DNA from: a virus
Taxonomy: Duplodnaviria > Caudoviricetes
Virus record (IMG/VR): IMGVR_UViG_3300025066_000101
Location: 1-31,513 of that record
Reading direction: 5' to 3' (one strand)
Length of the DNA stretch: 31,513 bases
Below the pieces are notes generated by a model. It saw only the letters and a program-made list of their open reading frames with translations. It did not search any database and was not told where the DNA came from. The translations under genes and the position numbers were made by a program. This document shows, piece after piece, positions 1-31,513 of the stretch. Each line of letters begins with the position of its first letter. The first letter of the stretch is position 1.

Positions 1-54
1 GTGCGATTGCAATTTAAGGACTCATCTCAAAACTACACTTCCACATGTTTTAAG

Positions 55-233
55 TGAAAAGTGAGGGACTCGAACCCTCGATTTGTAACCAGATAGGCTA
101 TCGACCCACAAATGCAGTATGTGCCGACCCGTCTAGCCTTTGTCCATCTAGCGAGGCCATGAACCCCCGCACCGCTGCCTTATCCGTGAGCATCTCAGCT
201 CTACATTACCATAGGGCTCCAACGGCACCTTTC
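55..233 (-). ncRNA. Oversized tRNA-like structured RNA (~179 nt)
   Basis: Acceptor stem GAAAGGT/ACTTTTC with A discriminator and T-arm GAGGG-TTCGAGT-CCCTC. Interior has long stems (CCGT..ACGG, GCAG..CTGC, GTGC..GCAC, ATTTGTGG..TTACAAAT). Confidence 0.65.
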
Positions 234-302
234 GTATTTTTATCGGTCGATGTTAATTCACCTTTTAATATCCCACGGCATGAAGCCCAGGAATACCCGA
301 AG

Positions 303-381
303 TGGACCAGAGGGGAGTCGAACCCCTGTACCCAAATGTTCTCTTGCGAGGTTTACATTGGGGCGAAACCGTTGCTGGCCC
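303..381 (-). ncRNA. Minimal tmRNA-like RNA (tRNA-like domain only)
   Basis: GGGCCAG/CTGGTCC-A acceptor with G3.U70 and A73, stemless D-loop CAACGGTTTCG, P2-like stem CCCAATGT/ACATTTGGG capped by CTC-GCAA-GAG, then TAC and T-arm AGGGG-TTCGACT-CCCCT. Confidence 0.7.
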
Positions 382-538
382 TTAGTACCCCATGTCGGTT
401 ATGCTCCGACCTCTGCGGGTTGAAGGCCCGCCGACTGCACTAGTCGTCCTATGGGGCAAAGTGGTCGTCTTACATCGGACTTAGTACGCTTGTGAGCTAG
501 GCTCAACTTGGACTTAGTACACCATGCGACCATATGTG

Positions 539-727
539 TTATTCTTCCGTTACCTCTTGGTCGTAACGACCGTCGCGGAAGCTGGGATTAGCCGCGAGGA
601 ACTTCGCAGCTTGACGCTTGGTGACTTCCTTCTCACCGCAGAACTTGACGAGAGCCGAGTGCAACGGGTGCTCCGACTTCAAGAGTTGAGCGGACGATAG
701 CTTGACGATAGTGACCTTTTTCGACAT
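539..727 (-). CDS. Hypothetical protein (62 aa)
   Basis: ATG with GAGGA RBS, directly downstream of promoter at 768-795. Confidence 0.75.
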   Translation of the reverse strand: MSKKVTIVKLSSAQLLKSEHPLHSALVKFCGEKEVTKRQAAKFLAANPSFRDGRYDQEVTEE

Positions 728-941
728 GACGTTTTTTCCTCAGGTGGCTTGTGATGTGTGAGACTACATTATACACCTAATGCAGCCCGAGTCAAGTGCA
801 ATTCTGGTCTTAATTGCGGAAGGCGAACTATTTAAGTGGGCGTCGTTCGCTCTGCCCTTGTCTCTTATGTCCTAATTATAGCATTGATTGCGGCGGGGTC
901 AACAGGCAAATGGGTATTTTCTAAAAGAATTTAAGATTGAC

Positions 942-1020
942 GTAAGTCGTTGGTATGAAAGGAGTTAGGGGGCGCGGGGCTGCCCCGCTGGATGTAAGTC
1001 CTTTGGTAGCAAGGGGTTAG
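942..1020. repeat. Paired 27-bp palindrome element, copy 1
   Basis: Units 942-968 and 994-1020, 25-bp GC-rich spacer. Confidence 0.95.
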
Positions 1021-1169
1021 GGCTTGGCAATCTCTAATAGTGATTCCATAGTCGCCTTGACAATATCATATATTGATGTATTGGTATAGTTGTCACCAAT
1101 ACGACCCCCACAGATATAGCCCTCACGGTCCTCTACCTCATGGACCAGTTCCTCTAGCTTGGTTGTCAT
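1017..1169 (-). CDS. Hypothetical protein (50 aa, MTTKLEELV...), not in ORF track
   Basis: Manual translation; start overlaps the stop of the upstream ORF and the TAA stop lies inside repeat copy 1. Confidence 0.6.
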   Translation of the reverse strand: MTTKLEELVHEVEDREGYICGGRIGDNYTNTSIYDIVKATMESLLEIAKP

Positions 1170-1405
1170 TAATCTACCTCGATATAAAAGGAATCTAGTT
1201 CTTCACCGCACACGACGTAACAGCGACGGTTGCCGCACTCACATCGGTTGCTATCTTTAGGGGATTCGGGAAGCATAAAGCTACCGCACTCATCACAGTC
1301 GCACACCATAGCCTCATCGCTATCAAGGCCATCAAGCATAAACCTTGTAAACTGCTCATCTGTTAGGCAGTTATAGGAATAGTGTTTGTGTAGTTCGTTG
1401 ACCAT
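1169..1405 (-). CDS. Small Cys-rich (zinc-ribbon-like) protein
   Basis: Likely start MVNELHKH at 1405, since the longer ORF overlaps tRNA-like DNA; CDCDECG and CECG motifs. Confidence 0.65.
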   Translation of the reverse strand: MVNELHKHYSYNCLTDEQFTRFMLDGLDSDEAMVCDCDECGSFMLPESPKDSNRCECGNRRCYVVCGEELDSFYIEVD

Positions 1406-1530
1406 GTTTCTCTTTCGCTGCCTCAATATAAGATATAAAATATAATAGCAAGGAATGACGGGTATCGAACTAATGCTGGCGTGTTTCACCACAGCGCTAT
1501 GCGACCACGAGGGTGGATGCACCCACCCGT

Positions 1531-1592
1531 TGGGACCAGCCCGCATTTCCGGTTTTATAGACCGGTGTGTTAACCATTCACACTACATTCCC
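1531..1592 (-). pseudogene. Degenerate tRNA with incomplete T-arm
   Basis: GGGAATG-TA-GTGTGAATGGTTAACAC D-arm and CCGGT-CTATAAA-ACCGG anticodon arm, then GCGGG with no T-loop or 3' T-stem. Confidence 0.55.
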
Positions 1593-1603
1593 AACACTTT
1601 CAG

Positions 1604-1672
1604 CGACCCATAGGGGCTTTGCTCCCCTTACCCAGGATAGACAGTCCCGAGGCCAAACTGATTGGATAGGTC
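1604..1672 (-). tRNA. Atypical tRNA-Asp(GTC)
   Basis: Acceptor GACCTAT/ATGGGTC with G73, anticodon arm CGGGA-CTGTCTA-TCCTG, T-stem AGGGG/CCCCT with non-canonical loop AGCAAAG, short D-arm CCAA-TCAGT-TTGG. Confidence 0.55.
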
Positions 1673-1700
1673 GAATGAGGGGACTCTAACCCCTCTCGTG

Positions 1701-1997
1701 TCAAACAAACTTTCGGGCAAACTTTCGTAAGCCGAAGCACACCTTCCCCAGTGTAGGGGAATAGCGGTACAGCCCATCGGTTCGTTCGATGTAATAACAT
1801 CGCTTGTCACCGTTAGGGTGTTCCACGTTCACAAGCAACTGAGAACGCTTGAATTCCTTATCGCCGCTGCGATAGTCCTCGCTGCGAACCTTCTGCTCGT
1901 CCGTATCACGTACCGAAAGCACACGACCGAAACGACCAGACACCCCCTGTAAGGGCTGCTTGTACTTAAAGGAAACAACATCATTTTTCACAAACAT
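1701..1997 (-). CDS. Hypothetical protein (possible SH3/Sm-like beta fold)
   Basis: ATG with GAGG RBS downstream of promoter 2052-2079; fold is a guess from the alternating hydrophobic pattern. Confidence 0.7.
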   Translation of the reverse strand: MFVKNDVVSFKYKQPLQGVSGRFGRVLSVRDTDEQKVRSEDYRSGDKEFKRSQLLVNVEHPNGDKRCYYIERTDGLYRYSPTLGKVCFGLRKFARKFV

Positions 1998-2210
1998 CAA
2001 AAAACCTCTTTCAAAAAAACCTAGGGAAGTCGTCTCCCCTTCATGTTTCCAATTATACCATAGGAGTTCGTGGAGTCAAGCCCATAGCGGCAAAAACAAC
2101 AAGAAATCCAAAGATAATTAAAGCGTTCATTTTGTTCTCCCTTCCTACTACTATTATCGGCACTTGTCAACCCCAATCTTCACTAATTCCCAAAAGAAAT
2201 CGAAATAGTT

Positions 2211-2289
2211 GTAAGTCGTTGCTATCAAAGGGGTTACGTCGCGCGGGGCAGCCCCGTAGGCCCTAAGTGCTTACGCACAAAGGACTTAC
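2211..2289. repeat. Paired 27-bp palindrome element, copy 2
   Basis: Units 2211-2237 and 2263-2289. Confidence 0.95.
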
Positions 2290-2291
2290 GG

Positions 2292-2597
2292 CTATCGTAC
2301 ACCGCCTTTATATAGTGAAATCGTTTTCCTAAGTTCTAAAATAGTCCTATCTCTCTGAGCCAACTCCTCTCGCAACTCCTGACGCTCGCGGTCGCAGTCC
2401 CAACATTCGATTGAGTCGTCAACGTACCGCTTTAGCAGCGTCCACGTTTTACGGTCGAGAACGTGCCGCGCGTCACTACCAACCATAAGGCAGAACCTTA
2501 TTCGGTCGTCGCTGCTGCCAGGACCACAGTATCTAGTGATGCTCAACTTCACACCGCCCTCATCATGGGCTCTCAACTGGATAACTTGTTCACTCAT
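2292..2597 (-). CDS. Hypothetical protein with C-terminal coiled coil
   Basis: Coupled by 4-nt overlap to 2594..2797. Confidence 0.7.
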   Translation of the reverse strand: MSEQVIQLRAHDEGGVKLSITRYCGPGSSDDRIRFCLMVGSDARHVLDRKTWTLLKRYVDDSIECWDCDRERQELREELAQRDRTILELRKTISLYKGGVR

Positions 2598-2797
2598 TTC
2601 ATTTCCTTTATATATTCAAAGTCACTTGTGGCGAGGTAAAACCCAAATTCTGCGTGTGTGTTGTCTGGGCTAAATAGGAAACTACCATCTTCTTCCGTCA
2701 CGACCCCCGTACTATTTTTAGGGAAATCCAGCGAACACATAGTATCAATCTCTGTCATCGTTCGCGTTAGCCTTGCCCGTTTTTCACTCATTTCCAA
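2594..2797 (-). CDS. Hypothetical protein
   Basis: Downstream of promoter 2862-2889; overlaps next gene by 4 nt. Confidence 0.6.
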   Translation of the reverse strand: MEMSEKRARLTRTMTEIDTMCSLDFPKNSTGVVTEEDGSFLFSPDNTHAEFGFYLATSDFEYIKEMK

Positions 2798-2961
2798 ATT
2801 CTCTCTGGTTTGATGTTGACGAGATATTCATTTTCATCTCATTTCCCTTTCTGTTGCCCCAATTATACCATACATATAGACAGAGTCAACCCCTAAAACT
2901 CGCGTGCTAGTGCTTACAGCACACCTACCGGGGCGGCTTAGGTGGCACACCCCCGCCCAGA

Positions 2962-3315
2962 CTACACCTGCTCCTTGTCCAGGGTGGGGTAGTGGAAGCG
3001 GGACGTACACCCGGTGTAGATTGCCAAGTAATCGAATAGCATATTGAAGCAATCGAACCCGTAGGTTGTGCATGTGCAATATGGGGAAACGGCGGTGTAG
3101 CCAACGCTATCGCCTAGCTTGGTGAACAGCTCTACACTGTACGCATCGCTACCATAGATAGCGATATTGCTATCAGCATACGACGCAGCACGACGCATCG
3201 CGGCGGCTGCCTTACGGCACGCCTGTAGGGGCGAACGCCCAAAGAACACCTCACGCACGTCAACGCCGTTGGAGTTGGTGAAAGAAAAAACGGCTTTGTG
3301 TGTGAAATTCGACAT
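2962..3315 (-). CDS. Hypothetical protein (117 aa)
   Basis: GGAG RBS, promoter at about 3359-3386. Confidence 0.75.
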   Translation of the reverse strand: MSNFTHKAVFSFTNSNGVDVREVFFGRSPLQACRKAAAAMRRAASYADSNIAIYGSDAYSVELFTKLGDSVGYTAVSPYCTCTTYGFDCFNMLFDYLAIYTGCTSRFHYPTLDKEQV

Positions 3316-3426
3316 AACTTAAAACTCCAGATGAAACTAACAACCAAACAACTCCCCTATTATAGTAGTTATCGGCACCGTGTCAACCCCCACACCACTA
3401 AATTATAAAAGAAAATAGAAATAGTC

Positions 3427-3505
3427 GTAAGTCGTTGGTATGAAAGAGGTTAGGGCGCGCGGGGCAGCCCCGTGGCACCTAAGTCCTTATGTGGTAACGA
3501 CTTAG
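3427..3505. repeat. Paired 27-bp palindrome element, copy 3
   Basis: Units 3427-3453 and 3479-3505. Confidence 0.95.
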
Positions 3506-3687
3506 AGCGAGGGGAGCTTGAAGATGCTGTCGATGCAGATTACCCTCAATGTGGGGTAGTCCTTATAGCAGTCGAGCAACTGATTCACAGCGTGCCGCTC
3601 ATCGTTCGCGTCGAAGTCGCAGAACTGTACAAACGTCAACTGGTCCTTGGTGCAATATTCCTGATATGTCACGCGAAATTTGGACAT
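3502..3687 (-). CDS. Hypothetical protein
   Basis: TAATG coupling with upstream ORF; stop inside repeat copy 3. Confidence 0.7.
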   Translation of the reverse strand: MSKFRVTYQEYCTKDQLTFVQFCDFDANDERHAVNQLLDCYKDYPTLRVICIDSIFKLPSL

Positions 3688-4007
3688 TAGTAGTCCTCCC
3701 CAAAGTAACCATAAGATTCGTCACACTCGCAGAAGTCCTCACGCTCCTGCTGCTCAAGCATCAAGTCCCGCTGATACTCGGCTTCGGCTTCCCCGTCCTC
3801 ATCGTTCCACCAGCCGCACTGGCAGTCGGATAGCATATCCCCACACTCAATACAGGGGGTCTGCTGTGCAATGGCATCGGCGGTCACGTCGTCAGCCGCC
3901 CCCTCACACACGGGGCAGGTGTCCACGTCCCCCACGAGAGAACCGCAGTCCTCGCAGTTCCAAGAGCCGTTGACGATAACGCGGGAGTCGATTTCTTGCT
4001 TGCACAT
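3687..4007 (-). CDS. Acidic multi-CxxC zinc-binding protein
   Basis: CEDC, CPVC, CIEC, CQC and CEC motifs; AAGGA RBS; promoter 4049-4076. Confidence 0.75.
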   Translation of the reverse strand: MCKQEIDSRVIVNGSWNCEDCGSLVGDVDTCPVCEGAADDVTADAIAQQTPCIECGDMLSDCQCGWWNDEDGEAEAEYQRDLMLEQQEREDFCECDESYGYFGEDY

Positions 4008-4079
4008 GGCAGGGTTCCTTAGTGGGTGGCGTTGCTTGTTATGTCTTAATTATAGCGAATATTTTAGCTGAGTCAATAG

Positions 4080-4280
4080 CTATTTTGAAAAAACTTGTGA
4101 TTCGCAACAATCGGTTACAATCGAGTGCCCAGAAAATGGGAGGGTCTTAACCTCAATTTTCATATTCGGGTCACGATGCGTGTAGCTTACCCCCACGGTG
4201 CATTGGGTCTTACACCCAATAGAACTAGCGACTAACATACCAGCAACGAGAGCGACAACGATGTAAATGTATTTCTTCAT
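4080..4280 (-). CDS. Putative small lipoprotein or exported protein
   Basis: MKK, hydrophobic stretch and lipobox-like SIGC; AGGA RBS. Confidence 0.65.
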   Translation of the reverse strand: MKKYIYIVVALVAGMLVASSIGCKTQCTVGVSYTHRDPNMKIEVKTLPFSGHSIVTDCCESQVFSK

Positions 4281-4376
4281 GGCGATTCCTTAAATGAGAA
4301 GAACTATCTTACTATATATATTATCGACACGTCAACCCCAAATCTTGAGGCAAACAGAAGAAAACACAAAATAGTT

Positions 4377-4455
4377 GTAAGTCCTTTGATACCAACGACT
4401 TAGGGTGCGCGGGGCTGCTTAATGGGGTGTAACTCCTTTAGTACCAACGACTTAG
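4377..4455. repeat. Paired 27-bp palindrome element, copy 4
   Basis: Units 4377-4403 and 4429-4455. Confidence 0.95.
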
Positions 4456-4655
4456 GGCGTTTTTATCTTGGCAACAATCTCATCAGAGGGGAGCCACCCA
4501 ATCCACTCATCCGACTCAACCAAGAGGGCCTCTTTACCCCCCATGCAGATAGGTGTACCAGTATCAACCACACTAAAGAGTGGGCCGCGTTCCCTGATTC
4601 GGTTGCGCGTTCGTTGGCTTGCCTCTTTGGCTGCCTCAATATGTAAAATGCACAT
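4452..4655 (-). CDS. Hypothetical protein
   Basis: AAGGA RBS; stop inside repeat copy 4. Confidence 0.65.
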   Translation of the reverse strand: MCILHIEAAKEASQRTRNRIRERGPLFSVVDTGTPICMGGKEALLVESDEWIGWLPSDEIVAKIKTP

Positions 4656-4658
4656 AAT

Positions 4659-4832
4659 TTAATCCTTCCAAATATCACCCCACTGGATAGCCTGATAGTA
4701 CTCCCTATCAAGGTGGGCCAGCATTGCACGCCATCGGCCATCGCTCACGCCTGATGGCTTACCGCCGCCATAGTGCAGACGGTTAACCACCCGCACCATG
4801 TGTCGATTTAGTTCCATGTTCTGTACGCTCAT
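4659..4832 (-). CDS. Hypothetical protein
   Basis: ATGA overlap with upstream gene (start MSVQNM). Confidence 0.6.
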   Translation of the reverse strand: MSVQNMELNRHMVRVVNRLHYGGGKPSGVSDGRWRAMLAHLDREYYQAIQWGDIWKD

Positions 4833-5242
4833 TTTTGTTCCCAATTCTCGTAAAATTCATCCATCGAGGGGACATCAACTGGTCCATCGGAGGGGACATC
4901 CCCCTTTACCACCCCATAGTGGGCCTCTAGTTGGGCCACACGAGCGGCCCGAAAATCTTTGTCGCAACCGACCGAAACATCCACCATTGTGGGGAGCATA
5001 AAGGCCCCCTCATCGTCGTGTGCTTCCTTTACGGTTAGCTTTCCAGCAAAACCAAGCAATTGCTCAAGCGTTTTGTGCTCAACCTCAACCGCTTTGTGCT
5101 TGCGGGATTCCCACAAATCGGTGGTTTTCAATTCGTCGTCGTCGTGAACAACATCGACGTTGAAACATCCGAACAACTCAACATCGCTGATGTGTTCGCC
5201 GTTGATTAGTTCGCTAGTCGTGGCGTTTGGAAAGTTCTTCAT
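4829..5242 (-). CDS. Hypothetical acidic protein (137 aa)
   Basis: Likely start MKNFPN with AAGGA RBS, downstream of promoter 5282-5310. Confidence 0.75.
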   Translation of the reverse strand: MKNFPNATTSELINGEHISDVELFGCFNVDVVHDDDELKTTDLWESRKHKAVEVEHKTLEQLLGFAGKLTVKEAHDDEGAFMLPTMVDVSVGCDKDFRAARVAQLEAHYGVVKGDVPSDGPVDVPSMDEFYENWEQK

Positions 5243-5315
5243 TGTCTTGATTCCTTGGGGGGTTGTGTTTGGTATACTTGAATTGTAGCAGGTTTCGCGG
5301 GGCGTGTCAACACCC

Positions 5316-5507
5316 CTAGTCAACTTTTCCGAGAAAAAAGTTCACGCCATTGTGAAATAGTTTCGGATTAGGATTGCCGTTGGTGGACGACTTAGCCGCG
5401 AGGAAATTAAACGCGGCCACCGCTGCCTTTGCGTTGGTAAACGTGCCTTGCAGCTTACCATGGTTGCCGCCGAACAGTTTGAATGGGTGGTTGAAATTGA
5501 TTTTCAT
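5316..5507 (-). CDS. Hypothetical protein
   Basis: AAGGA RBS, promoter 5550-5577. Confidence 0.7.
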   Translation of the reverse strand: MKINFNHPFKLFGGNHGKLQGTFTNAKAAVAAFNFLAAKSSTNGNPNPKLFHNGVNFFLGKVD

Positions 5508-5618
5508 AACATCGTTTCCTTAGTGGGTTGTGTTGCTTAGTATTCCCCCATTATACTAAGTATCGGCAATTTGTCAACACCAAAACCACTAAATCTGCAA
5601 AGAAAGTCAAAATACTTT

Positions 5619-5634
5619 TGGCACGATATTTGCA
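5619..5634 (+). promoter_or_regulatory. sigma54 (-24/-12) promoter motif
   Basis: TGGCACG-ATAT-TTGCA, exact RpoN consensus. Confidence 0.65.
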
Positions 5635-5647
5635 GTACGGAATCGTC

Positions 5648-5726
5648 GTAAGTCGTTGATATGAAAGGACTTAGGGCGCGCGGGGCAGGCGGGCGGCACC
5701 TAAACCCTTGCCACGTAAGGACTTAC
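5648..5726. repeat. Paired 27-bp palindrome element, copy 5
   Basis: Units 5648-5674 and 5700-5726. Confidence 0.95.
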
Positions 5727-5830
5727 GTCAAGGCGTACGCTATAAGAATAATGGCAGTCGTGCCGAGGAACATCACGGCGGCGGGTATAACTATAATTTC
5801 AATTAAAAAAGCAACTATTTTACACAGCAT
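5723..5830 (-). CDS. 35-aa hydrophobic membrane peptide, not in ORF track
   Basis: MLCKIVAFLIEIIVIPAAVMFLGTTAIILIAYALT; stop inside repeat copy 5; no clear RBS. Confidence 0.45.
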   Translation of the reverse strand: MLCKIVAFLIEIIVIPAAVMFLGTTAIILIAYALT

Positions 5831-6000
5831 GTCAAGTACCTTGGAAAAGTGTCAAGTATGGTCAGTACATCGCGGCCAATCTGGTATTACGCCGATTCGA
5901 GGGGATTTCTCCAGTCCCCTTTTAGTAGCCCAACGGTCTTATCCTCCTCATGTTGAAACTGCTGACCCGTCTATCAGAGTCAGCTAAACTTGTCATGTGT

Positions 6001-6195
6001 TGGCGGGTGTGCCGAGAGTCGAACTCAGGTTGGTCTAGTCACTTGTTGACGTTATATCGCGATGTTCCCACATCAAAAGGGCTGTACATCACCCTTTGCG
6101 ACTAACTAAGGAGGGTTGGATAAACCCCTCCGACAACGACTAAACTGGATACCGCACATCGGCCACCCGATTTGTTTCGGATAACCTACACACCC
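6001..6195 (-). ncRNA. Oversized tRNA-like RNA with encoded CCA (~195 nt)
   Basis: Perfect acceptor GGGTGTG/CACACCC followed by G-CCA, U8A9, T-arm CTGAG-TTCGACT-CTCGG, large multibranched interior. Confidence 0.7.
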
Positions 6196-6533
6196 AGATT
6201 GTATTGTCGGTTTTTTTGCCCGCAGGACCGAAAACCTGCACTTGATTCGTTGGGCGGCGGCTAGGTCGCTCGTTAGGCCACCATTCCAGGCGGCACCCAT
6301 TTGTTTTAACCCGTTCAATCTGCCTGCGGGTTCGTGTACCCTGCGACAGACTTTTGAACGACCCAGCGTTTTTTATCAACGACTTACGCAATCGGAACGG
6401 ATGTCTTTTGCGGTTCGAGTGCCCATCTTATCACTCGAAACTTTCAGGGGTTGTAAAGCCCTACGGGGTCGCCATTACACGTCTCGCTTGTCTTATGTTT
6501 TCAATTATACCATAAATCTTATCGTTGTCAACC

Positions 6534-6689
6534 CTACTTGGGTAAAGTTTTCACTTTTTTTTGCCACTTGTATCGCGGGCCAAAGAAAACGGTTTTCATC
6601 CCGTTTTGCTTGTCGTAGGCGGCGACTAAGGTGTCAGCAAAGGTAGCCTTGCGGGCGATAGTTCGGACGGTGTAACGAGAAAACTTCAT
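6534..6689 (-). CDS. Basic hypothetical protein (51 aa, MKFSRYTVR...), not in ORF track
   Basis: AAGGA RBS; manual translation. Confidence 0.6.
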   Translation of the reverse strand: MKFSRYTVRTIARKATFADTLVAAYDKQNGMKTVFFGPRYKWQKKVKTLPK

Positions 6690-6704
6690 TCTATTTCCTT
6701 GTGG

Positions 6705-6762
6705 GCGGGGCTATTCAGTCTCAAATGAGCTATTCGCGTGGTGCGAATCCAGTAAGCCTCGC
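6705..6762 (-). ncRNA. Three-way-junction 5'-leader RNA motif, copy 1
   Basis: GGCT-TACTGG-ATTCGC(loop)GCGAAT-AG-CTC(loop)GAG-ACTGAAT-AGCC between promoter 6780-6808 and RBS. Confidence 0.6.
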
Positions 6763-7035
6763 TTGCTTGGTATATCTAAATTGTACCATAGATGTTGTGT
6801 GGAGTCAAGAGCTTAGGAGCCCTTTTTTCGAGATAATCTCGAATTCTTTTTGGGTGATTACCCCAGTTTTAACCCACTGGAATACCCACCCGATACGCTT
6901 CTCAAGGTAGGTGTTTTCTAGTTTGGCGATTCGTGCTTTTAGTTCGCTGGTCATTTCGATGCCTTAAAAAAACTTTCTTAACTGCCTTGCGTGTGTCCTA
7001 CACTATAAGGAAATTGCCCCGAAAGAGGGGTCGTC

Positions 7036-7150
7036 GTAACTCCTTACCACCACACGACTTACGTCGAAATTCCCCCTAAACAGCCTAATGTGTTATGTAT
7101 GTCACCCCCCGCTGATTATCGACATAAGTTGTTACTAGCACACGACTTAA
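7036..7150. repeat. Two unpaired copies of the 27-bp palindrome
   Basis: 7036-7062 and 7124-7150. Confidence 0.75.
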
Positions 7151-7187
7151 AATACTTCCTAAATACTTTATTTTCCAGAAGAGGTAT

Positions 7188-7203
7188 GTGACACGTTAGG
7201 TCA
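7188..7203. promoter_or_regulatory. Putative operator GTGACACGTTAGGTCA (also at 8132-8147 and 8453-8468)
   Basis: Three near-identical copies with TGAC-N7-GTCA dyad; two overlap the -35/spacer of promoters. Confidence 0.55.
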
Positions 7204-7279
7204 CGGGCCGCACGGGAGGGGGTTAGCTATAACTGTACCCCCCGAAATAGTTTTGCGTTTGGCACGATATTATATTGAC

Positions 7280-7358
7280 GTAAACCCTTGGTATCAAAGG
7301 ACTTAGGGCACGCGGGGCAGGCCCCCCGACCGTAACCCCTTACCACGTAAGGACTTAC
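7280..7358. repeat. Paired 27-bp palindrome element, copy 6
   Basis: Units 7280-7306 and 7332-7358. Confidence 0.95.
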
Positions 7359-7531
7359 GTCGAAAGTACTTCTTTCCATTCACCGTTGGTGTGGTCAACG
7401 TCGCCAATCAGCTCACCGTCTTTCCATACCTGTACAGCCGAACACTTAGGGTCAGCAACAGCCAAAGCCCGCGACAACGTAGGCCCCACGTAAATCACAT
7501 CGTAATAAGTAATTACAATATATATCTTCAT
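7355..7531 (-). CDS. Hypothetical protein, paralog of 9743..9916
   Basis: Likely start MKIYIV; stop inside repeat copy 6. Confidence 0.7.
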   Translation of the reverse strand: MKIYIVITYYDVIYVGPTLSRALAVADPKCSAVQVWKDGELIGDVDHTNGEWKEVLST

Positions 7532-7565
7532 TTTGTCAAGTACCTTAAAAAGTGTCAAGTATTGT

Positions 7566-7697
7566 TTAGCGAGTCAAGCCACCACCGTAGCGGCGACGGC
7601 AGCAAGCGCCACGCATTTTCTCACGCTTCAAATCGCTGGCCTTCTCTTTCGAGCGTAGGCGGCGGCGGTCAGCTTTGCGGTTTTGTCCCTTAGTCAT
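7566..7697 (-). CDS. Very basic 43-aa protein, not in ORF track
   Basis: AAGGA RBS, promoter 7735-7763; MTKGQNRKADRRRLRSK... Confidence 0.6.
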   Translation of the reverse strand: MTKGQNRKADRRRLRSKEKASDLKREKMRGACCRRRYGGGLTR

Positions 7698-7766
7698 TTT
7701 GTTTTTCCTTAGTGGTGTTGTTTTGTATTACTGAATTATAGCATAGGTGGCGATGGTTGTCAACCC

Positions 7767-8024
7767 CTATTCACAACCATAACGCTCACAATCGCGAACT
7801 TTGCTTGCGATGTACGCATCACGCACAACGTCAAACGCTGGCACGCGGTACACGTTGGCAGCGGCATCAAATTCTACTAGTTGATTACCAAACTCTTCGA
7901 CGTAAGCCCAAACGGCTTTATAGTCACCTAGCACACGATGTGCGTCGGTTTTGGTTTCGATTTTAGGCATATCCCAAACACTTGCAACAACTGTGGGGAG
8001 CAAGATTTCAGTAACTTTCAACAT
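7767..8024 (-). CDS. Hypothetical protein
   Basis: ORF behind a promoter and leader motif copy 2. Confidence 0.7.
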   Translation of the reverse strand: MLKVTEILLPTVVASVWDMPKIETKTDAHRVLGDYKAVWAYVEEFGNQLVEFDAAANVYRVPAFDVVRDAYIASKVRDCERYGCE

Positions 8025-8043
8025 TGTAAACTCTTTCTTATAA

Positions 8044-8097
8044 GCGGGGCTATTCAGTCTCGTGTGAGCTATTCACTTTTGTGAATCCAGTAAGCCG
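8044..8097 (-). ncRNA. Three-way-junction 5'-leader RNA motif, copy 2
   Basis: Junction nucleotides identical to copy 1, different loops, compensatory G-C to A-T change in the ATTC(A/G)C stem. Confidence 0.6.
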
Positions 8098-8144
8098 TTG
8101 CTTTGTTATATCAGTATTATACCATAGGGGCGTGACACGTTAGG

Positions 8145-8399
8145 TCAACGGTCCAGGGAATTATCGTGATTTTCTTTAAGGCTTTTCCAAACCTTACGGA
8201 TGTATCGCCAGCTATGGCCATCGGTCCAACGGGAGCTAAGCTCACCATCAGCTTCTACCACACGGATTTCACCGAAGTTTTTATCGTGGCGAATCAACAC
8301 AACGTCAAGCATGTGACGCATACCGTCATAAAGACCACCGGAACCCCCACCGGGGCGTTCGATTGCGTTCTTCTTAGTTTCGATAATTCCTAGTTTCAT
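8145..8399 (-). CDS. Hypothetical protein
   Basis: Shared leader AGAAAGAGTTATTATG. Confidence 0.7.
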   Translation of the reverse strand: MKLGIIETKKNAIERPGGGSGGLYDGMRHMLDVVLIRHDKNFGEIRVVEADGELSSRWTDGHSWRYIRKVWKSLKENHDNSLDR

Positions 8400-8468
8400 A
8401 ATAACTCTTTCTTAAGACTCTGTTTTGTATAACTGTATTGTATCAGAAGGTAGTGACACGGTAGGTCA

Positions 8469-8759
8469 CTAGCCTAAATATTTCATACGTTTTGCGGAAA
8501 GTATTTCCTGTTCGGTCAGGCTGTAGTCTACAGTGGGATTTGCCGAAACCTTACCCTCATATACGAGGTACTTCCAAGCGAAGCTTAAGCACCCCTCACT
8601 AGAGCGGTTTTCCGTCAACACCTTAGCGTTGTAGGTCTCCTTGTCCTCTAGTCCGAATTCTGCAAACTCGTCAGCACTAACCAACAGCACGCTAGTAAAT
8701 GGGTATGCTCGCAACTGGATTTGCACGGTTCCAACTGGGGTATTCTTATCTAGCTTCAT
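8469..8759 (-). CDS. Hypothetical protein
   Basis: ORF preceded by a sigma54-like rather than sigma70 promoter. Confidence 0.7.
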   Translation of the reverse strand: MKLDKNTPVGTVQIQLRAYPFTSVLLVSADEFAEFGLEDKETYNAKVLTENRSSEGCLSFAWKYLVYEGKVSANPTVDYSLTEQEILSAKRMKYLG

Positions 8760-8821
8760 TTTAACTCTTTCTTAAAAAACTCTTAGCTTGGCTTGTGCCT
8801 TGCTTTCTATTATATATATAA

Positions 8822-8837
8822 TGCACTATTCGTGCCA
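8822..8837 (-). promoter_or_regulatory. sigma54 (-24/-12) promoter motif
   Basis: TGGCACG-AATA-GTGCA on the minus strand, GG-N10-GC intact. Confidence 0.55.
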
Positions 8838-8862
8838 AAACTCACAAAATTGAAATTTAGTT

Positions 8863-8996
8863 GTAAGTCGTTGTGTGGTAAGGGTTTACGTCGTGCCAAA
8901 ACATCTTCTCAAAACCCCCCTTTTGTCAAGAAGTGTCGTCAATTTGTGAGCGTTTTCCAAAATGGCGATGTAAGTCGTTGTGTGGTATAGAGTTAC
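8863..8996. repeat. Two unpaired copies of the 27-bp palindrome
   Basis: 8863-8889 and 8970-8996. Confidence 0.85.
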
Positions 8997-9056
8997 AGCG
9001 ATTCTCAAATCGGGACTCGATTCTCATTATGGGATTCTTTTCAGATTGTTGGCGTT

Positions 9057-9072
9057 TGGCACGCCGTTTGCA
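9057..9072 (+). promoter_or_regulatory. sigma54 (-24/-12) promoter motif
   Basis: TGGCACG-CCGT-TTGCA, exact consensus. Confidence 0.65.
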
Positions 9073-9085
9073 ATAAGAAATCGTC

Positions 9086-9164
9086 GTAAGTCGTTGGTAC
9101 TAAAGGACTTAGAGCGAGCGGGGCAGGGGGGCTCGACGTAAGTCGTTACCACCAAAGGACTTAC
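9086..9164. repeat. Paired 27-bp palindrome element, copy 7
   Basis: Units 9086-9112 and 9138-9164. Confidence 0.95.
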
Positions 9165-9529
9165 AGCCCCAATTTGGCGTCCCGCTTGGCCTTACGCTCG
9201 GCCTTACGCTGGGCAGCCAATTCGGCCTTAGTCACCCCCTGTTGGCAGTAGACGACGGCGTCGTAAGTAACCCCACTATCAGGGCACTCACGCCCCTCTT
9301 CCTTGACCACATAGGACAAGTCAAAGGACAAACCAACCGAAACCGACCGAGCGAATTCGCGGTCGAATTTGGTGAAGTTTTTCAACGCACGACCGTCAGC
9401 CGTCACCATGGTGATAGCAACGAACTTTTCCCAAATCGCGTCACCGTAGCGGTCGGTGCCCATGTGAAGATTCTCGCGGGCGAATTCGATGATGCTGGCG
9501 ACGGTAACTTGCTCAGTGATACGGGACAT
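9161..9529 (-). CDS. Hypothetical protein (122 aa)
   Basis: GAGG RBS; stop inside repeat copy 7. Confidence 0.75.
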   Translation of the reverse strand: MSRITEQVTVASIIEFARENLHMGTDRYGDAIWEKFVAITMVTADGRALKNFTKFDREFARSVSVGLSFDLSYVVKEEGRECPDSGVTYDAVVYCQQGVTKAELAAQRKAERKAKRDAKLGL

Positions 9530-9651
9530 AACTAAACCTCAAAAGTGAATGATTAACAACTCAACTACGTTGATTGTACTCTTATCATCGGCATATGTCA
9601 ACACCTATCACCACCAATTCTGTAATAAACTTGAAATAATTTACAATCGTC

Positions 9652-9730
9652 GTAAGTCGTTACTGCCAAAGGACTTAGGTCGGCGCACCCGGCTGGTTTT
9701 GATGTAACCCCTTGGTATCAAAGGGTTTAC
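9652..9730. repeat. Paired 27-bp palindrome element, copy 8
   Basis: Units 9652-9678 and 9704-9730. Confidence 0.95.
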
Positions 9731-9742
9731 GTCGATATTTTT

Positions 9743-9916
9743 TTAGTATATCTTTTCCACCCAGCCATCCCCCGTGCGGGTCATCTCACCCACCATTTTG
9801 CCTAGCTGCCATATCTGTATCCCACTGCCACCATTGGCGGCTGCTGTGGCACACTCGGAGGATAGCCCAGCGTACAGGATAAAATCATAATCAAACACAA
9901 TATAAATCTTAGGCAT
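9743..9916 (-). CDS. Hypothetical protein, paralog of 7355..7531
   Basis: Likely start MPKIYIV with GAGG RBS. Confidence 0.7.
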   Translation of the reverse strand: MPKIYIVFDYDFILYAGLSSECATAAANGGSGIQIWQLGKMVGEMTRTGDGWVEKIY

Positions 9917-9929
9917 TGCAAGCCCCTCT

Positions 9930-10106
9930 TTAGTACTGCCAATGTGAAGTGAGCACGTCACCCGCTAGGAAATTACGATTAACGATTCGGTTTACCTCGA
10001 CCTGAACAGCGTCATAACTGCCGTCAGTCTCAACCAAATACCATTGGGAAACCCGCTTGTTATCAGACGAGCGAACAACGATAACTTGAACCCACTCTTT
10101 AATCAT
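9930..10106 (-). CDS. Hypothetical protein
   Basis: Likely start MIKEWV with AAGGA RBS. Confidence 0.65.
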   Translation of the reverse strand: MIKEWVQVIVVRSSDNKRVSQWYLVETDGSYDAVQVEVNRIVNRNFLAGDVLTSHWQY

Positions 10107-10155
10107 TTTGTTTTCCTTTGTCATGCCTCAATTTTACCACGTTGGCCGATTGGTG

Positions 10156-10377
10156 TCAAGAGGTAGGACGCGACCAATTGGGATTATATAGAAAGTTTTC
10201 CGCTTTCTTATCTTCCAAGATAACACGGTATACCCCTCTATCGGACCATACCGAATTTCGTACCGTGAAACCCTCCCCTTTGTACTCTTGAATTAGTTCA
10301 TCCAACAACCTACGCTTGGTATTGCCAAACTCGATAACAACGTGTTTGAAATTAACTAGCGGTTGTGAAGATTGCAT
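10156..10377 (-). CDS. Hypothetical protein
   Basis: AAGGA RBS plus shared promoter-leader. Confidence 0.7.
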   Translation of the reverse strand: MQSSQPLVNFKHVVIEFGNTKRRLLDELIQEYKGEGFTVRNSVWSDRGVYRVILEDKKAENFLYNPNWSRPTS

Positions 10378-10455
10378 TTTGTTTTCCTTGGTGGCGTTGT
10401 GTTTTGTGTAACTGTATTGTAGCAGATAGGGAGAGGTTTGTCAACCCCCCTTTTC

Positions 10456-10602
10456 TTATTTTTCTTCAATGTAAAACCGCTCAGCGGATTCACCTTCGGC
10501 TACCATTTCAGCCAACTCAGCCACGGCCTCTTCCCGCGAAGCAAACGGGGCAAAGCAAGGGAGGGAAAGCTCAGAACAAACGATTTCTTGGATAACAAAC
10601 AT
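10456..10602 (-). CDS. Hypothetical protein (48 aa, MFVIQEIV...), not in ORF track
   Basis: Manual translation; promoter at about 10661-10688. Confidence 0.6.
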   Translation of the reverse strand: MFVIQEIVCSELSLPCFAPFASREEAVAELAEMVAEGESAERFYIEEK

Positions 10603-10736
10603 GATAACTCTTTCTAGAAAAACTCTTTGAGAGACAACCTTGCCTCCTCTTCATGTTTCTATTATACCATAACTTTCAAATTTGTCAACCCTCAAACACC
10701 TTTATTTTCAAAGTATTTTCAAAGTATTTTTGTGTC

Positions 10737-10815
10737 GTAAGTCGTTGGTGTCAAAGGGTTTACGTCGAGCCAACCTGCTCCGCTCGTCGTAAGTCGTTGC
10801 TGTGTAAGGGGTTAC
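10737..10815. repeat. Paired 27-bp palindrome element, copy 9
   Basis: Units 10737-10763 and 10789-10815. Confidence 0.95.
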
Positions 10816-10827
10816 GTCAATTTCATA

Positions 10828-11013
10828 TTACTTTTCTGGTTCGTTCAGAAAGTTTTCGTATAGCCCCTTGTAGGGGGGCACTGGCTTAGGGAAAGCACAA
10901 GCACCGTGGAACAGCACAGCACCGGCAACGGGTTTACCGCAGGGCTTACCGCATAGGCCGCAGTTTCCCGAACCCTTTTCCTTGTGTTCCCAAACGTGTG
11001 GTTTTCGCGGCAT
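10828..11013 (-). CDS. Small zinc-finger-like protein
   Basis: Likely start MPRKPH; CGLC...HGAC motif; AAGGA RBS. Confidence 0.65.
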   Translation of the reverse strand: MPRKPHVWEHKEKGSGNCGLCGKPCGKPVAGAVLFHGACAFPKPVPPYKGLYENFLNEPEK

Positions 11014-11075
11014 GATGTTTTTCCTTGGTGGTGTTGTTTTGTATAATCGAATTGTAGCAGATTGGAGAATAGGTG

Positions 11076-11273
11076 TCAAGCCCATTTCTTAATAAGTTTC
11101 CAACCGTTATCAACCCACTGGTCGATAATTTGCTGTTGGTTGCTAACCCCAGTACGGGTAGAATCGGTTTTTCCGTCCTTCTCAAACTTTAGGTTTACCA
11201 TAGGGGATTGAGTACCCCATACTTGGGAAGCTCGGAAGCGACGGGCCGAATTGTAATTTGTTTTGTTCATCAT
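11076..11273 (-). CDS. Hypothetical protein
   Basis: Own promoter-leader. Confidence 0.65.
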   Translation of the reverse strand: MMNKTNYNSARRFRASQVWGTQSPMVNLKFEKDGKTDSTRTGVSNQQQIIDQWVDNGWKLIKKWA

Positions 11274-11316
11274 AACTTTCGTAAGACTTTGTTTTGTATA
11301 ATTGAATTGTAGCAGA

Positions 11317-11520
11317 TTAGTTGGCTGCTGTCAACCCCTGATGGCAGATTATTAGAACATTTCTCATCAGGCTATCGAAATCAGCATAGGATACAATCCC
11401 ACGACCATTTAGGTCGAATAGCACGTCAACAGCTACATCCATACCGTATCGGTCGATTGCATTGAAGCAATCATTGATGGTAAGGTCGCAACGGGCAAGG
11501 GTGTCATTTACGTTAGGCAT
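11317..11520 (-). CDS. Hypothetical protein
   Basis: AAGGA RBS plus promoter-leader. Confidence 0.7.
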   Translation of the reverse strand: MPNVNDTLARCDLTINDCFNAIDRYGMDVAVDVLFDLNGRGIVSYADFDSLMRNVLIICHQGLTAAN

Positions 11521-11583
11521 TTTAGTTTTCCTTAGGGGGTTGTGTTTTGTATAACTGTATTGTATCAGATAATGTTGCGTTTG

Positions 11584-11733
11584 TCAAGGGGTGAAAGCGT
11601 TAAATTCCATAAGTAATCCGAGAAATGTTTTTCCCTCGGATTCCATGCAGAGATTAAAGAATTCAATGCCCCACGTAGAAACGATGAATTCTTTGTTTGC
11701 TTCACATTCGACTTTTGTAATGAATCCGCTCAT
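11584..11733 (-). CDS. Hypothetical protein (49 aa), apparently near-leaderless, not in ORF track
   Basis: ATG about 10 nt downstream of the TATAAT at 11743-11748, no RBS. Confidence 0.55.
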   Translation of the reverse strand: MSGFITKVECEANKEFIVSTWGIEFFNLCMESEGKTFLGLLMEFNAFTP

Positions 11734-11820
11734 GTTGCCCTAATTATACCATAGGTTCGAGATTTGTCAACCCCATATACCGTTATTTTGAAAAGATTTT
11801 CAAAGTAATATGAAATTGAC

Positions 11821-11899
11821 GTAACCCCTTGGTACTAAAGGACTTAGGGCGGCGTAGCCGGGTGGATTTGCTGTAACCTGTTGGTATCAAAGGACTTAC
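11821..11899. repeat. Paired 27-bp palindrome element, copy 10
   Basis: Units 11821-11847 and 11873-11899. Confidence 0.95.
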
Positions 11900-11992
11900 G
11901 GCAATATCTTCTTCCCCCATGAGTCATTGCGCTGGGACTCTATAGGGGAGTGGGTTAGGTAGCACACCCCATGTGTGTGGTGTACATGTGTG

Positions 11993-12476
<484 letters not shown>

Positions 12477-12548
12477 GTTGTTTCCTTGGTTGGTTATCGT
12501 TGTTTTGTATGGTTTAATTATACCATGTTGTCGATTGGTGTCAACCCC

Positions 12549-12713
12549 TTACATCCACCAATCCGAGAAAACTACATCGTCAGCTTCTTTGGACGATAGC
12601 CCAAACTCATCTTGTAGCTCGACAGCCAAAGCGTCCAACGCATCGGGGTAATCATCATCCATAACGGAGACCATGGCTTCTTTGACGAACTTTTGTGCTT
12701 CTTGAAAACTCAT
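12549..12713 (-). CDS. Acidic hypothetical protein (54 aa), not in ORF track
   Basis: AAAGGA RBS; own promoter. Confidence 0.65.
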   Translation of the reverse strand: MSFQEAQKFVKEAMVSVMDDDYPDALDALAVELQDEFGLSSKEADDVVFSDWWM

Positions 12714-12789
12714 TGTGTTTTTCCTTTGGGTTGTGTTGTTTTGTATAATTGAATTATAGCAGGTTGGTTGGTGGCTGTCAACCCCTAGT

Positions 12790-13044
12790 TTAGAATTCTA
12801 CATAGAATCCCTTAGGCCCTGATACCGTTATATCCTTGCCCTGCAATACCACATCGTATCCATTGTCACCGCAGAACCTAACAACGCGAATCATCGTATC
12901 CATATCAATCGTGATGTTTGGATTCCACTGGTCGTCGTCAAGACCGTCAAACATACCCAAGTCACTTAAGAATGAGACAAGAGAAACATCGTCATTCTGT
13001 CGTAAAGCGTAAGCAAGCGAGCCGTTGTAAGATAAGTCAAACAT
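12790..13044 (-). CDS. Acidic hypothetical protein
   Basis: AAAGGA RBS; promoter 13084-13112. Confidence 0.7.
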   Translation of the reverse strand: MFDLSYNGSLAYALRQNDDVSLVSFLSDLGMFDGLDDDQWNPNITIDMDTMIRVVRFCGDNGYDVVLQGKDITVSGPKGFYVEF

Positions 13045-13154
13045 TGTATTTTCCTTTGGGTTGTTGTTGCTTTGTATGCTTCCATTATATAGTATGTATC
13101 GTCATTTGTCAACAGCTATCGTGATTAATTCTATGAAATATCCAAAGTATTTTA

Positions 13155-13275
13155 GCGATGTGTTGTTGATGTGTTATCTATGTTACATAGATGTGATGAT
13201 GATGTGATGATGATGCGACGATGATGTGATAGCGATGTGATAGCGATGTGATGATGATGTGATGCGATGCGATAG
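13155..13275. repeat. Low-complexity (GAT/GATGT/GATGC)n tandem repeat
   Basis: Directly visible, non-coding. Confidence 0.85.
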
Positions 13276-13445
13276 GACGCATAAGCGGGGGTTTATCTAA
13301 TCTCACATGAGTTAGGGATACTCACGGACTATCTGGGGGGGTGGTGCAAACACAACGAGCGGCAATTACGTGAAATGACTACTTTTAGCAACGCCGTTCC
13401 AAAAAAAATCGACCGCCCCTATTTTAACGAAGTGGCAACTTAACG

Positions 13446-13476
13446 AAAAAAAGCCCCAGATGTTACTCTGAGGCTT
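13446..13476 (-). terminator. Intrinsic terminator after the protease gene
   Basis: AAGCCTCAGA-loop-TCTGGGGCTT followed by a T run on the minus strand. Confidence 0.8.
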
Positions 13477-13504
13477 CTGCAACTAATGCTTCAATGGCCA
13501 CCGC

Positions 13505-14386
13505 TCATCTTGTCTGACGCCCACTCCACGTAGCTCGTACACGGCCTTTCGTAAAGAGGCGACCAAGCGGCCCTGTTGTCGTATTTGGCGAGAAGGGAAC
13601 ATTGTTGGCCCCTTGTTCTGCCCCACCATCTGACGTAGTTTGTAATCCTGCTTTGCCCACTGGTATAGGTTTTGACGCAGGCTTCTTTTTTGAGAAGCTG
13701 ATAAGCTCCTTGATTCTCTTGGCGCTAACACACGATGAGTCCTGTCTAAGAACAATACCGAGGACTTCGTCCCCATTTGAGTCCATCACCACAGAGCCAC
13801 TTCTACCGCCCTGAACTTCCGCGTTGAATCGGAAGCCCGTAGAGAAGGTCATGTCAACCTTCCCCCATATCATGGAAGGTGGATTGGAGTTTGCACACCC
13901 AATCGAAATAACCCTGTCACCCTTATTAGGAATGGCCTTAGCCAGCCTTAGCCTTGTCTTAATATGCTTTATCTTGTCCGTTGGAATTGATACGACCCCC
14001 ACATCTTGATTCACTGATGCGAAGAACATGTCTAGGAGCCCAAGAGTATGGAGCAACTTATCACTGTCATCGACCCTGTGATAAGTGTTCATAATCATAG
14101 TCCCCTTTACCAGCGCCATCCTCTCAGGGTAGAAGAACTCCACCCACACTTCCTTAAAGTCCGTAGCGAACATATGCCCAGCCGTAATCAAATATGCTGT
14201 GCCCTCTTTCTCTGCCTCAGTTTCAACCAACCAAGCCGTGCCGGTTGCCGTGCTGTAGGTGTTGGTCTTTGGATTGAGGCGTTTTACGTGTATCCTGGCG
14301 GTTGCTCTTACTGGGTCCAAAAGGTCGGCGTTCGCCGCCCCTATAGAACTCAGGAAAAGCACCATAGTAAGTATAAGTCTATACAT
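13505..14386 (-). CDS. Secreted trypsin-like serine protease
   Basis: Signal peptide ending ANA-D; catalytic triad motifs LITAGH, DVGVV and GGRSGS. Confidence 0.85.
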   Translation of the reverse strand: MYRLILTMVLFLSSIGAANADLLDPVRATARIHVKRLNPKTNTYSTATGTAWLVETEAEKEGTAYLITAGHMFATDFKEVWVEFFYPERMALVKGTMIMNTYHRVDDSDKLLHTLGLLDMFFASVNQDVGVVSIPTDKIKHIKTRLRLAKAIPNKGDRVISIGCANSNPPSMIWGKVDMTFSTGFRFNAEVQGGRSGSVVMDSNGDEVLGIVLRQDSSCVSAKRIKELISFSKKKPASKPIPVGKAGLQTTSDGGAEQGANNVPFSPNTTTGPLGRLFTKGRVRATWSGRQTR

Positions 14387-31339: not shown

Positions 31340-31513
31340 GCGTAATAGTAGCAGTCATGGCATGGCACGCTCCAATGAACTACCATCTACAAAGATGGCT
31401 GGCAGATAATAAGCTGGAATGGTTTAGAGGCTCACAAGAGTTTGGAGTTGACATCTGTCGTAATCAGGCAGTAGAAAAATTCCTTCAGGAGTATAACCAT
31501 GAGTATCTGTTGA
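31336..31513 (+). CDS. Partial CDS, possible glycosyltransferase (GT-A like)
   Basis: ATGA-coupled; VDICRNQAVEKFLQEYNHEYLL resembles the segment before a DxD motif; truncated by window end. Confidence 0.45.
   Translation, partial: MSVIVAVMAWHAPMNYHLQRWLADNKLEWFRGSQEFGVDICRNQAVEKFLQEYNHEYLL

Follow-up and report, generated by a model that had tools for sequence, protein, structure and literature searches.

Integration host factor (IHF) assists promoters such as lambda PL, Mu Pe, and Pu of Pseudomonas putida, and its sites are among the closest described counterparts of the DNA element analyzed here. This element is a pair of 27-bp, mirror-symmetric units that recurs ten times between positions 942 and 11,899 of a viral sequence assigned to Caudoviricetes (IMG/VR record IMGVR_UViG_3300025066_000101); the complete 31,513-nucleotide stretch is referred to below as the window. 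The IHF consensus has been given as WATCARNNNNTTR, with kinks 9 bp apart in a 35-bp site (PMC8421141, 10.1101/382655), and its TTR is placed 6 bp from the nearest kink (PMC5829579). The unit resembles IHF sites and IHF-assisted promoters (lambda H', sigma-54 promoters) in its AA-N4-TTR flank, its 9-bp kink distance, and its extent of about 33-35 bp, as well as in its phased upstream position and its association with insertion sequence (IS) ends and sigma-54 boxes. Unlike those sites, it is fully symmetric, with TTR on both sides, no A-tract half, and a loose WATC core, and the units form rigid pairs on a GC-rich spacer, ten times over. A further difference is that the unit would apparently be read by a beta-only homodimer, unlike sites of the alpha/beta IHF heterodimer. 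Hbb of Borrelia is a homodimeric, sequence-specific HU/IHF protein, and we know of no phage arrays described for it. This product of a single gene (PDB 2NP2) is a precedent for an IHF-like protein that acts as a homodimer; the unit itself is present in Treponema genomes.

A second comparison is with the promoter early stem-loop (PeSL) elements of T4-type phages. These intergenic blocks recur in variable regions, carry early promoters of the host type, and mark points of gene exchange with scattered crossovers (PMC2839356, PMC4122927). The element shares these features. The PeSL combines a promoter with a terminator-type stem-loop, whereas the element is a double-stranded twin site without pairing covariation, and it belongs to a phage without a close cultured relative.

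Recombination sites form a third group. The core sites of tyrosine recombinases require matching centres, and integron attC sites act as bottom-strand hairpins with covarying boxes and an invariant AAC/GTT. Along with Xer dif modules, they resemble the element in having inverted arms around a 7-bp centre and in bounding gene modules, with the upstream stop codon sometimes inside. They differ from it in that its centres do not match, no fixed crossover or recombinase was found, and it is phased to promoters; it also has neither the attC fold nor the invariant AAC/GTT. Finally, the terminal-repeat early regions of T5 and SPO1 resemble the left part of the window, with dense, strong, host-type promoters and small open reading frames (ORFs) that read inward. 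We know of no twin-site arrays in either phage, and what is a terminal repeat in T5 and SPO1 is only a depth hint in the window.

The paired element and its promoters

All ten pairs listed in the original prediction were recovered at the same coordinates, each with an offset of exactly 52 bp between the starts of its two units. A profile derived from these 20 units, as had been proposed, gives 23 sites scoring above 12 in the window (mean 0.05 and maximum 1 in 100 shuffles), and a direct pattern search gives 21 matches against 0.01 expected. The symmetric layout of inverted 10-bp arms around a 7-bp centre stands, but the palindrome as first written fits exactly in only one of the 20 units, and within any given unit the two arms show 1-5 departures from perfect complementarity over their 10 positions. 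Invariant in 20/20 units are TAA (positions 2-4), TT (9-10), AA (18-19), and TTA (24-26), which together read TAA-N4-TT-N7-AA-N4-TTA. The 25-bp spacers vary in sequence, as had been claimed, but not freely: they are 64-92% G+C compared with 47% for the region, and GCGGGGCWG is common to seven of the ten. The set itself was incomplete, since the profile also finds three clear unpaired units, at 7036-7062, 8863-8889, and 8970-8996, and a weak one at 7124-7150.

The invariant columns correspond to a mirror-doubled AA-N4-TTR and are at least 96% conserved over 363 units collected in IMG/VR. The TT and AA steps lie 9 bp apart, with TTA 6 bp further out on each side. If the kinks fall at the TT (9/10) and AA (18/19) steps, the 9-bp and 6-bp distances are both reproduced on either side, so that the unit can be read as a symmetric version of a single IHF-type site. 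The A-tract half of many IHF sites is missing, with a mirror copy of the TTR flank in its place. A perfect WATCAR core occurs in 14/122 proximal and 3/122 distal units, the left unit of element 5 matches the IHF consensus perfectly on the minus strand, and the full consensus is frequent in units of other lineages. A description of the unit as two overlapping, mutually exclusive IHF sites was dropped, since both readings share the kink steps.

Each pair lies at a module boundary, as had been described, and most face a leftward promoter. Element 1 (942-1020) has a -35 box at 902, 40 bp away, and perfect promoters lie beside elements 3 (3427-3505; -35 at 3386, 41 bp), 5 (5648-5726; 5577, 71 bp), 9 (10737-10815; 10688, 49 bp), and 10 (11821-11899; 11770, 51 bp). 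Element 8 (9652-9730) has a promoter with its -35 at 9601 (51 bp), which brings to six the pairs with a strong sigma-70-type promoter reading leftward at a distance of 40-71 bp. Two more combine a -35 with a poor -10: element 2 (2211-2289), with TTGACA at 2170 (41 bp), and element 4 (4377-4455), whose centres are inverted relative to most others, with a weak promoter and its -35 at 4335 (42 bp). For elements 6 (7280-7358) and 7 (9086-9164), no sigma-70-type promoter was found within 130 bp outside the element; the left unit of the former contains a promoter-like -35 (7297), and a sigma-54-type box at 9057 lies beside the latter. These promoters belong to a leftward array that heads small ORFs between 768 and 13112: all 26 sigma-70-type sites with at least 10/12 matches in positions 1-14000 are on the minus strand, three of them overlapping a unit or a sigma-54-type box. 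At two promoter-like sites (7269-7297 and 10726-10754, minus strand), the -35 lies inside a proximal unit, where occupancy of the unit could repress.

The distances from element to -35 follow the helical repeat. In a first set of relatives, from which four near-duplicate contigs were left out, they cluster at 30-32, 39-43, 49-53, 62-63, and 69-73 bp with the gaps between empty, a period of about 10 bp that holds for 58 of 62 distinct elements. A larger set comprises 397 distinct elements in relatives; here a promoter lies no more than 90 bp from 190 elements of the 52/53-bp class, and in 170 of these the distance is within 2 bp of 20, 31, 41, 51, 62, 72, or 83. The arrangement is also polar: over a range of 130 bp, 83/161 elements have a promoter downstream and four have one on the opposite side. 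Between element and promoter, the linker is A/T-rich, with 32% G+C against 79% for the spacer (relatives set). The phasing to -35 boxes and the IHF geometry support phased protein-binding arrays, the second of the two alternatives in the original prediction.

From these patterns, we consider it slightly better than an even bet (about 55%) that each unit is a symmetric docking site for a homodimer of an IHF-beta-type host protein and that the pair bends the DNA twice, thereby shaping the lead promoter of each block. The host would be Planctomycetota-like, and a single IHF-beta-type protein would bind each unit as a homodimer, which would explain the symmetry of the unit. Two U-turns on the same face, joined by the stiff GC-rich spacer, would wrap the DNA tightly. 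Judged from the measured distances, the centre of the proximal site lies near -79, -89, or -99, about the positions at which IHF acts at lambda PL and Mu Pe. Such a wrap would help RNA polymerase to engage the A/T-rich DNA upstream of the -35, so that the lead promoter is likely stimulated, and it may also buffer the promoter from the upstream block.

Buffering could instead be the principal function, with the pair acting as a roadblock or topological insulator that ends or dampens upstream transcription, or compacts the first-entering DNA, and with promoter phasing secondary. Elements do abut gene ends: the TAA of the distal unit is the stop of the upstream predicted ORF in five of the ten window pairs (ends 1017, 3502, 4452, 7355, and 9161), it closes an ORF of at least 40 codons in 17/128 elements compared with five on the other strand, and a stop codon lies within 20 bp of 51/128. 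The region has no excess of intrinsic terminators (17 vs 14.8 expected) and many of the promoters are already consensus, both of which suit a boundary, and IHF has been described as a supercoiling buffer that divides topological domains. A roadblock, however, does not need strict helical phasing to the downstream -35, and we regard a mainly insulating role as rather unlikely.

A further possibility is that the element works as a single strand, either in DNA, as a hairpin resembling attC, or in RNA, as a terminator or stabilizer. Two of the ten elements have better folds than shuffled sequences, with z as low as -5.6, and across lineages the spacers tend to be palindromic (0.584 vs 0.525). Against this, z is above -1.2 in five of the ten and the folds differ among copies, no U-tract follows the spacer stem, and only one of the ten elements overlaps a terminator-like match, on the opposite strand. 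In 122 elements, the complementarity of arms (0.515 and 0.495) is no higher than that of shuffled partners (0.52-0.54), and covariation was found neither within or between units nor within spacers when lineage was controlled. The lack of arm covariation favours duplex recognition over hairpins, and we consider a single-stranded function very improbable.

Exchange of gene blocks around the elements

Element-bearing relatives differ in the order of their modules. No close relative of the window's array was among the loci fetched, so all synteny comparisons use other family members. One contig carries modules A-B-C (L029) where another has A-C-B (L044), the junctions lying at elements, and a second such case is L030 compared with L046. 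Changed junctions with both flanks mapped were counted over 29 pairs in both directions, and amount to 22/109 elements, 14/135 promoter-only sites, and 29/262 module-internal positions. Change is thus about twice as frequent at elements (p 0.03-0.04, for comparisons that are not independent and with wider intervals at elements). The claim that module order and content change at the elements therefore holds as an enrichment, but 43 of the 65 breakpoints lie elsewhere.

These junctions are an argument for a site-specific cassette system, in which the unit is the core site of a tyrosine recombinase and a host or unrecognized enzyme excises or reorders modules. Some breakpoints fall within the element itself: the 7-bp centre is mosaic at the L030-L046 junction, a further junction falls in the proximal unit, and L377 has gained one 52-bp period with a break at the edge of centre and arm. 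The abutment of host units on tRNA 3' ends also counts in favour of this reading. The positions of most crossovers do not favour such a system, as the two cleanest lie in the linker (+95 and +105 to +119), outside both units, and the others are scattered at +23-28, +50-67, +76-87, and +144; this mapping skipped shifts below 550 bp, and eight of the 18 events examined had no usable parent pair. The 7-bp centres are identical in only ten of 642 within-contig comparisons (8 and 2 of 321), and AAC stands at the outer end, on the transcribed strand, in three of the ten window elements.

Nor was an enzyme found. As had been stated, the window has no recombinase gene (none among the 52 ORFs scanned of this 31.5-kb fragment). 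The proposed search for a phage tyrosine recombinase came back empty, with PF00589 matched in 0/9 element-bearing phage records (seven of them at least 90% complete) and PF00239 in 0/5, and there was no PF00589 match among 125 + 62 ORFs in the short flanks adjoining chromosomal units. A cassette system would also leave the promoter phasing unexplained. We therefore think it quite improbable that the units are recombinase sites, and the integron-like alternative of the original prediction is not borne out.

Four sequencing runs yielded only assembled contigs over positions 1-14000. Their long pieces are collinear across the elements, and the joints listed between elements look like other phages because their spacers are foreign and their sides measure less than 40 letters. 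Such contigs drop rare variants and are uninformative on excised circles; for PeSLs, mini-circles have been estimated at about one in 100,000 virions (PMC2839356). The main text of that paper does not mention IHF.

The comparison with PeSLs, by contrast with the cassette system, gains support, in that relatives exchange modules about twice as often at elements. The exchange of gene blocks near the sites is most likely ordinary recombination between repeats and not the work of a dedicated cassette recombinase. By this reckoning, it would be a by-product of homologous recombination between repeated element-linker-promoter blocks, as in PeSLs, and the shuffling appears to fit the PeSL picture better than it does a dedicated system. 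On present evidence, the element is not a new recombination system.

Spread of the units and a candidate binding protein

The strict 52-bp pattern was found in 50 IMG/VR stretches, around which the 363 units were collected. Of 175 gaps below 200 bp between neighbouring units, 141 are 52 bp, 13 are 53 bp, and three are 51 bp, for seed pairs that had been selected for 52. A variable-gap scan, covering 7 of 64 parts of IMG/VR, shows the exact 52-bp offset to be fixed in the window but lineage-specific. In its 255 distinct pairs, the commonest gap is 53 bp (115), followed by 52 bp (17), 58 bp (17), 45 bp (16), 60 bp (14), 50 bp (13), 48 bp (11), and 42 bp (9), with the 45-, 58-, and 60-bp classes stemming from 2-5 loci. 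Spacing by five helical turns is, on this distribution, dominant and not universal. One lineage (L214, L196) spaces its units by 58 bp in tandem arrays, matches the IHF consensus in full, and has a hairpin, GACCCC-N4-GGGGTC, as its spacer. A relaxed pattern leads to an estimate of about 1200 IMG/VR stretches, which makes the element widespread, and in 5/5 near-complete phage records the pairs are confined to a single region of less than 15 kb. No description of the element was found in the literature, where coverage of subscription journals was thin; it appears to be an unpublished, widespread version of the IHF-type promoter layout, with side effects that resemble those of PeSLs.

Boxes with the -24/-12 consensus of sigma-54 promoters are a second component of the arrays. 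Two perfect ones on the plus strand (5619-5633 and 9057-9071) point into elements 5 and 7 and stop 14 bp short of them, the former facing against the early genes. A third, with one mismatch (8823-8837, minus strand), points at the ORF at 8469-8759 and has the single unit at 8863-8889 at about -52 to -78, and the single unit at 8970-8996 lies between two divergent boxes of this type. Partial boxes are seen at 7259 (plus strand) and 8899 (minus strand). In relatives, 57 of 60 such boxes lie in element arrays and 27 are exactly 14 bp from an element and face backwards, an orientation confirmed against gene direction in L223. IHF is reported to assist sigma-54 activators (PMC6524683). No match to the activator family PF00158 was found in 5/5 near-complete element-bearing phage records, and RpoN was found in 3/3 Planctomycetota genomes.

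Single units also occur in bacterial chromosomes, mostly of Planctomycetota, with others in Verrucomicrobia, Spirochaetes, Fibrobacter, Gemmatimonadota, Latescibacterota, Bacteroidota, and a few Firmicutes. Five chosen genomes have 1-20 copies compared with none in controls, and in one planctomycete there are 19 against none in the reversed control. Their contexts are those expected of IHF, namely IS ends, tRNA 3' ends, and sigma-54 boxes. Units lie beside DDE transposases and upstream of dnaN, and start -1 to 5 bp from the 3' end of a tRNA or tmRNA gene in 18/125 loci (including L059, L063, L066, L094, L097, and L108), with no integrase seen in the short flanks. Half-units precede sigma-54 boxes in 45 cases compared with five in controls among 151 Planctomycetia, and their distances are phased, peaking at 29 bp (10/45, p about 5e-5). 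Individual cases include a unit some 90 bp before dnaN-gyrB of a planctomycete (L535, 3000-3026) and units within dispersed repeat families, one with about 20 copies and a poly-C run (G009:C13), one with about ten copies and a flank like that of a miniature inverted-repeat transposable element (G007:C1), and one at DDE-transposase ends (G006:C1).

A candidate binder is an E-x-R IHF-beta-like protein of planctomycetes. The phages do not seem to provide one, since PF00216 (HU/IHF) was matched in 0/9 element-bearing phage records, and PF00216 proteins occur in all 41 Planctomycetia searched. In the 30 best-scoring of these proteins that were fetched, E-x-R is present in every one, aligned with EIR of Escherichia coli IHF-beta, and each of the five carrier genomes has at least one such protein; the E-x-R residues are listed as IHF-beta-specific in a preprint. 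A unit lies within 500 bp upstream of 7/30 E-x-R protein genes (shuffled mean 0.11, maximum 2), and the sole strict pair in the 41 genomes, with its units 64 bp apart, is upstream of an E-x-R gene in G007.

Several observations weigh against docking by an IHF-beta-type homodimer. At the level of the site, the WATC between the kinks is loosely kept, with one mismatch or fewer to the full consensus in 51/122 proximal and 24/122 distal units, positions 5-8 are more biased than N4 requires, and off-phase spacings of 48 and 57-58 bp occur in other lineages. No promoter was detected for 78/161 elements, most promoters in the window have no element, and many match the consensus perfectly, so that an activator may be superfluous; the backward sigma-54 boxes at a fixed 14 bp are unexplained by simple activation. 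In chromosomes, no phylum carries the unit more often than Planctomycetota, at 32 of the first 80 loci, but units are also found in Bacteroidota, a phylum said in a preprint to lack IHF-beta, and in a few Firmicutes, the latter possibly through chance or terminators. About 17 of some 230 matches could, by estimate, be due to chance, and three of the 18 tRNA-side units are terminator-like, these being the only ones with a T-tract. The seven upstream units have mostly weak scores and include two near-identical loci, and 23 of the 30 E-x-R genes have none.

Part of this evidence would suit a different dimeric regulator, of host or phage, for which the units are operators bound cooperatively at five helical turns. 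The loose core, the biased positions 5-8, and carriers said to lack IHF-beta all fit such a protein, which could be concealed among the phage ORFs, most of which have no known family. It would have to recognize a site of 27-33 bp whose invariant bases fall into four short A/T patches, spaced as in IHF sites, found in contexts typical of IHF and with the full IHF consensus in many units of other lineages, and we think it unlikely for these reasons.

Setting of the array and its significance

The window is the complete source record, a 31.5-kb virus fragment, and the runs containing it are marine where they have a habitat label. Its right part encodes terminase, portal-like, capsid-like, and sigma-factor-like proteins along with a sugar epimerase, and its left 13 kb is made up of small ORFs, nearly all without a known family match. 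Identity of the terminase does not exceed 27% in the 20 records covered (of 49), none of them a close cultured relative, and the paired element was not found in a phage collection by blastn. Capsid identity to the window is 61-76% in four family members (G001, G003, G010, and G011) and 33% in another (G163). The search for capsid homologues, which returned more than 5000 relatives, yielded no host name, and a search with the sigma-factor-like protein led to two distant loci.

In four runs, contigs cover the part to the left of about 13.5 kb 1.4-1.9 times as deeply as the structural region (20.8/14.7, 318/170, 634/390, and 29.7/18.2), with a step near 13,470-13,500. In a second comparison, runs X3 and X6 agree with this excess and X1 gives no clear picture. 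Because contig depth is not copy number, this is a hint only that positions 1-13500 form a long terminal repeat with inward-reading early promoters. A (GT)n microsatellite within a 114-bp duplication (12133-12347), an 11-bp tandem repeat (13180-13274), and a strong leftward terminator (13449-13478) near the depth step are candidate genome-end features. Positions 31277-31513 fall in a 591-bp contig of several-fold higher depth, and this piece and an HNH gene (20807-21217) are possibly repeated or mobile.

The left region has other features of its own. A second palindrome, GTGAC-N7-GTCAC, occurs at 7188-7204, 8132-8148, and 8453-8469 (three copies vs 0.02 expected), in two cases just upstream of leftward ORFs, and is a candidate operator. 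A tRNA-like gene at 1450-1592 (minus strand) has a long insertion in the T-arm region; it scores 40 bits as the sole Rfam match in the window and was overlooked by ARAGORN. By eye, pieces at 55-100 and 300-395 (minus strand) have T-arm/acceptor-like ends resembling parts of tRNA or tmRNA, and are possible small non-coding RNAs.

A more ambitious interpretation is that a large family of uncultured phages of 150-230 kb uses a host protein to chromatinize the DNA that enters first. Two IHF-beta homodimers on each twin site would hold a wrap of about 80 bp, similar in size to a nucleosome, and this would combine with the backward sigma-54 boxes into a switch and boundary for each early block that senses the state of the host. 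We regard this as tentative and rather doubtful. If it were true, the unit would be the first defined recognition site of beta-only IHF proteins in the PVC (Planctomycetes-Verrucomicrobia-Chlamydiae) group and neighbouring phyla. The question of whether alpha-less IHF-beta-like proteins bind specific sequences as homodimers has been posed for Acidobacteria (10.1101/2024.06.24.600358), and the unit offers a concrete site at which to ask it. For the phages themselves, the arrays represent a control architecture repeated across an abundant group, with an estimated 1200 or so stretches and capsid relatives in their thousands but no close cultured member, and the motif may help to point to their hosts.

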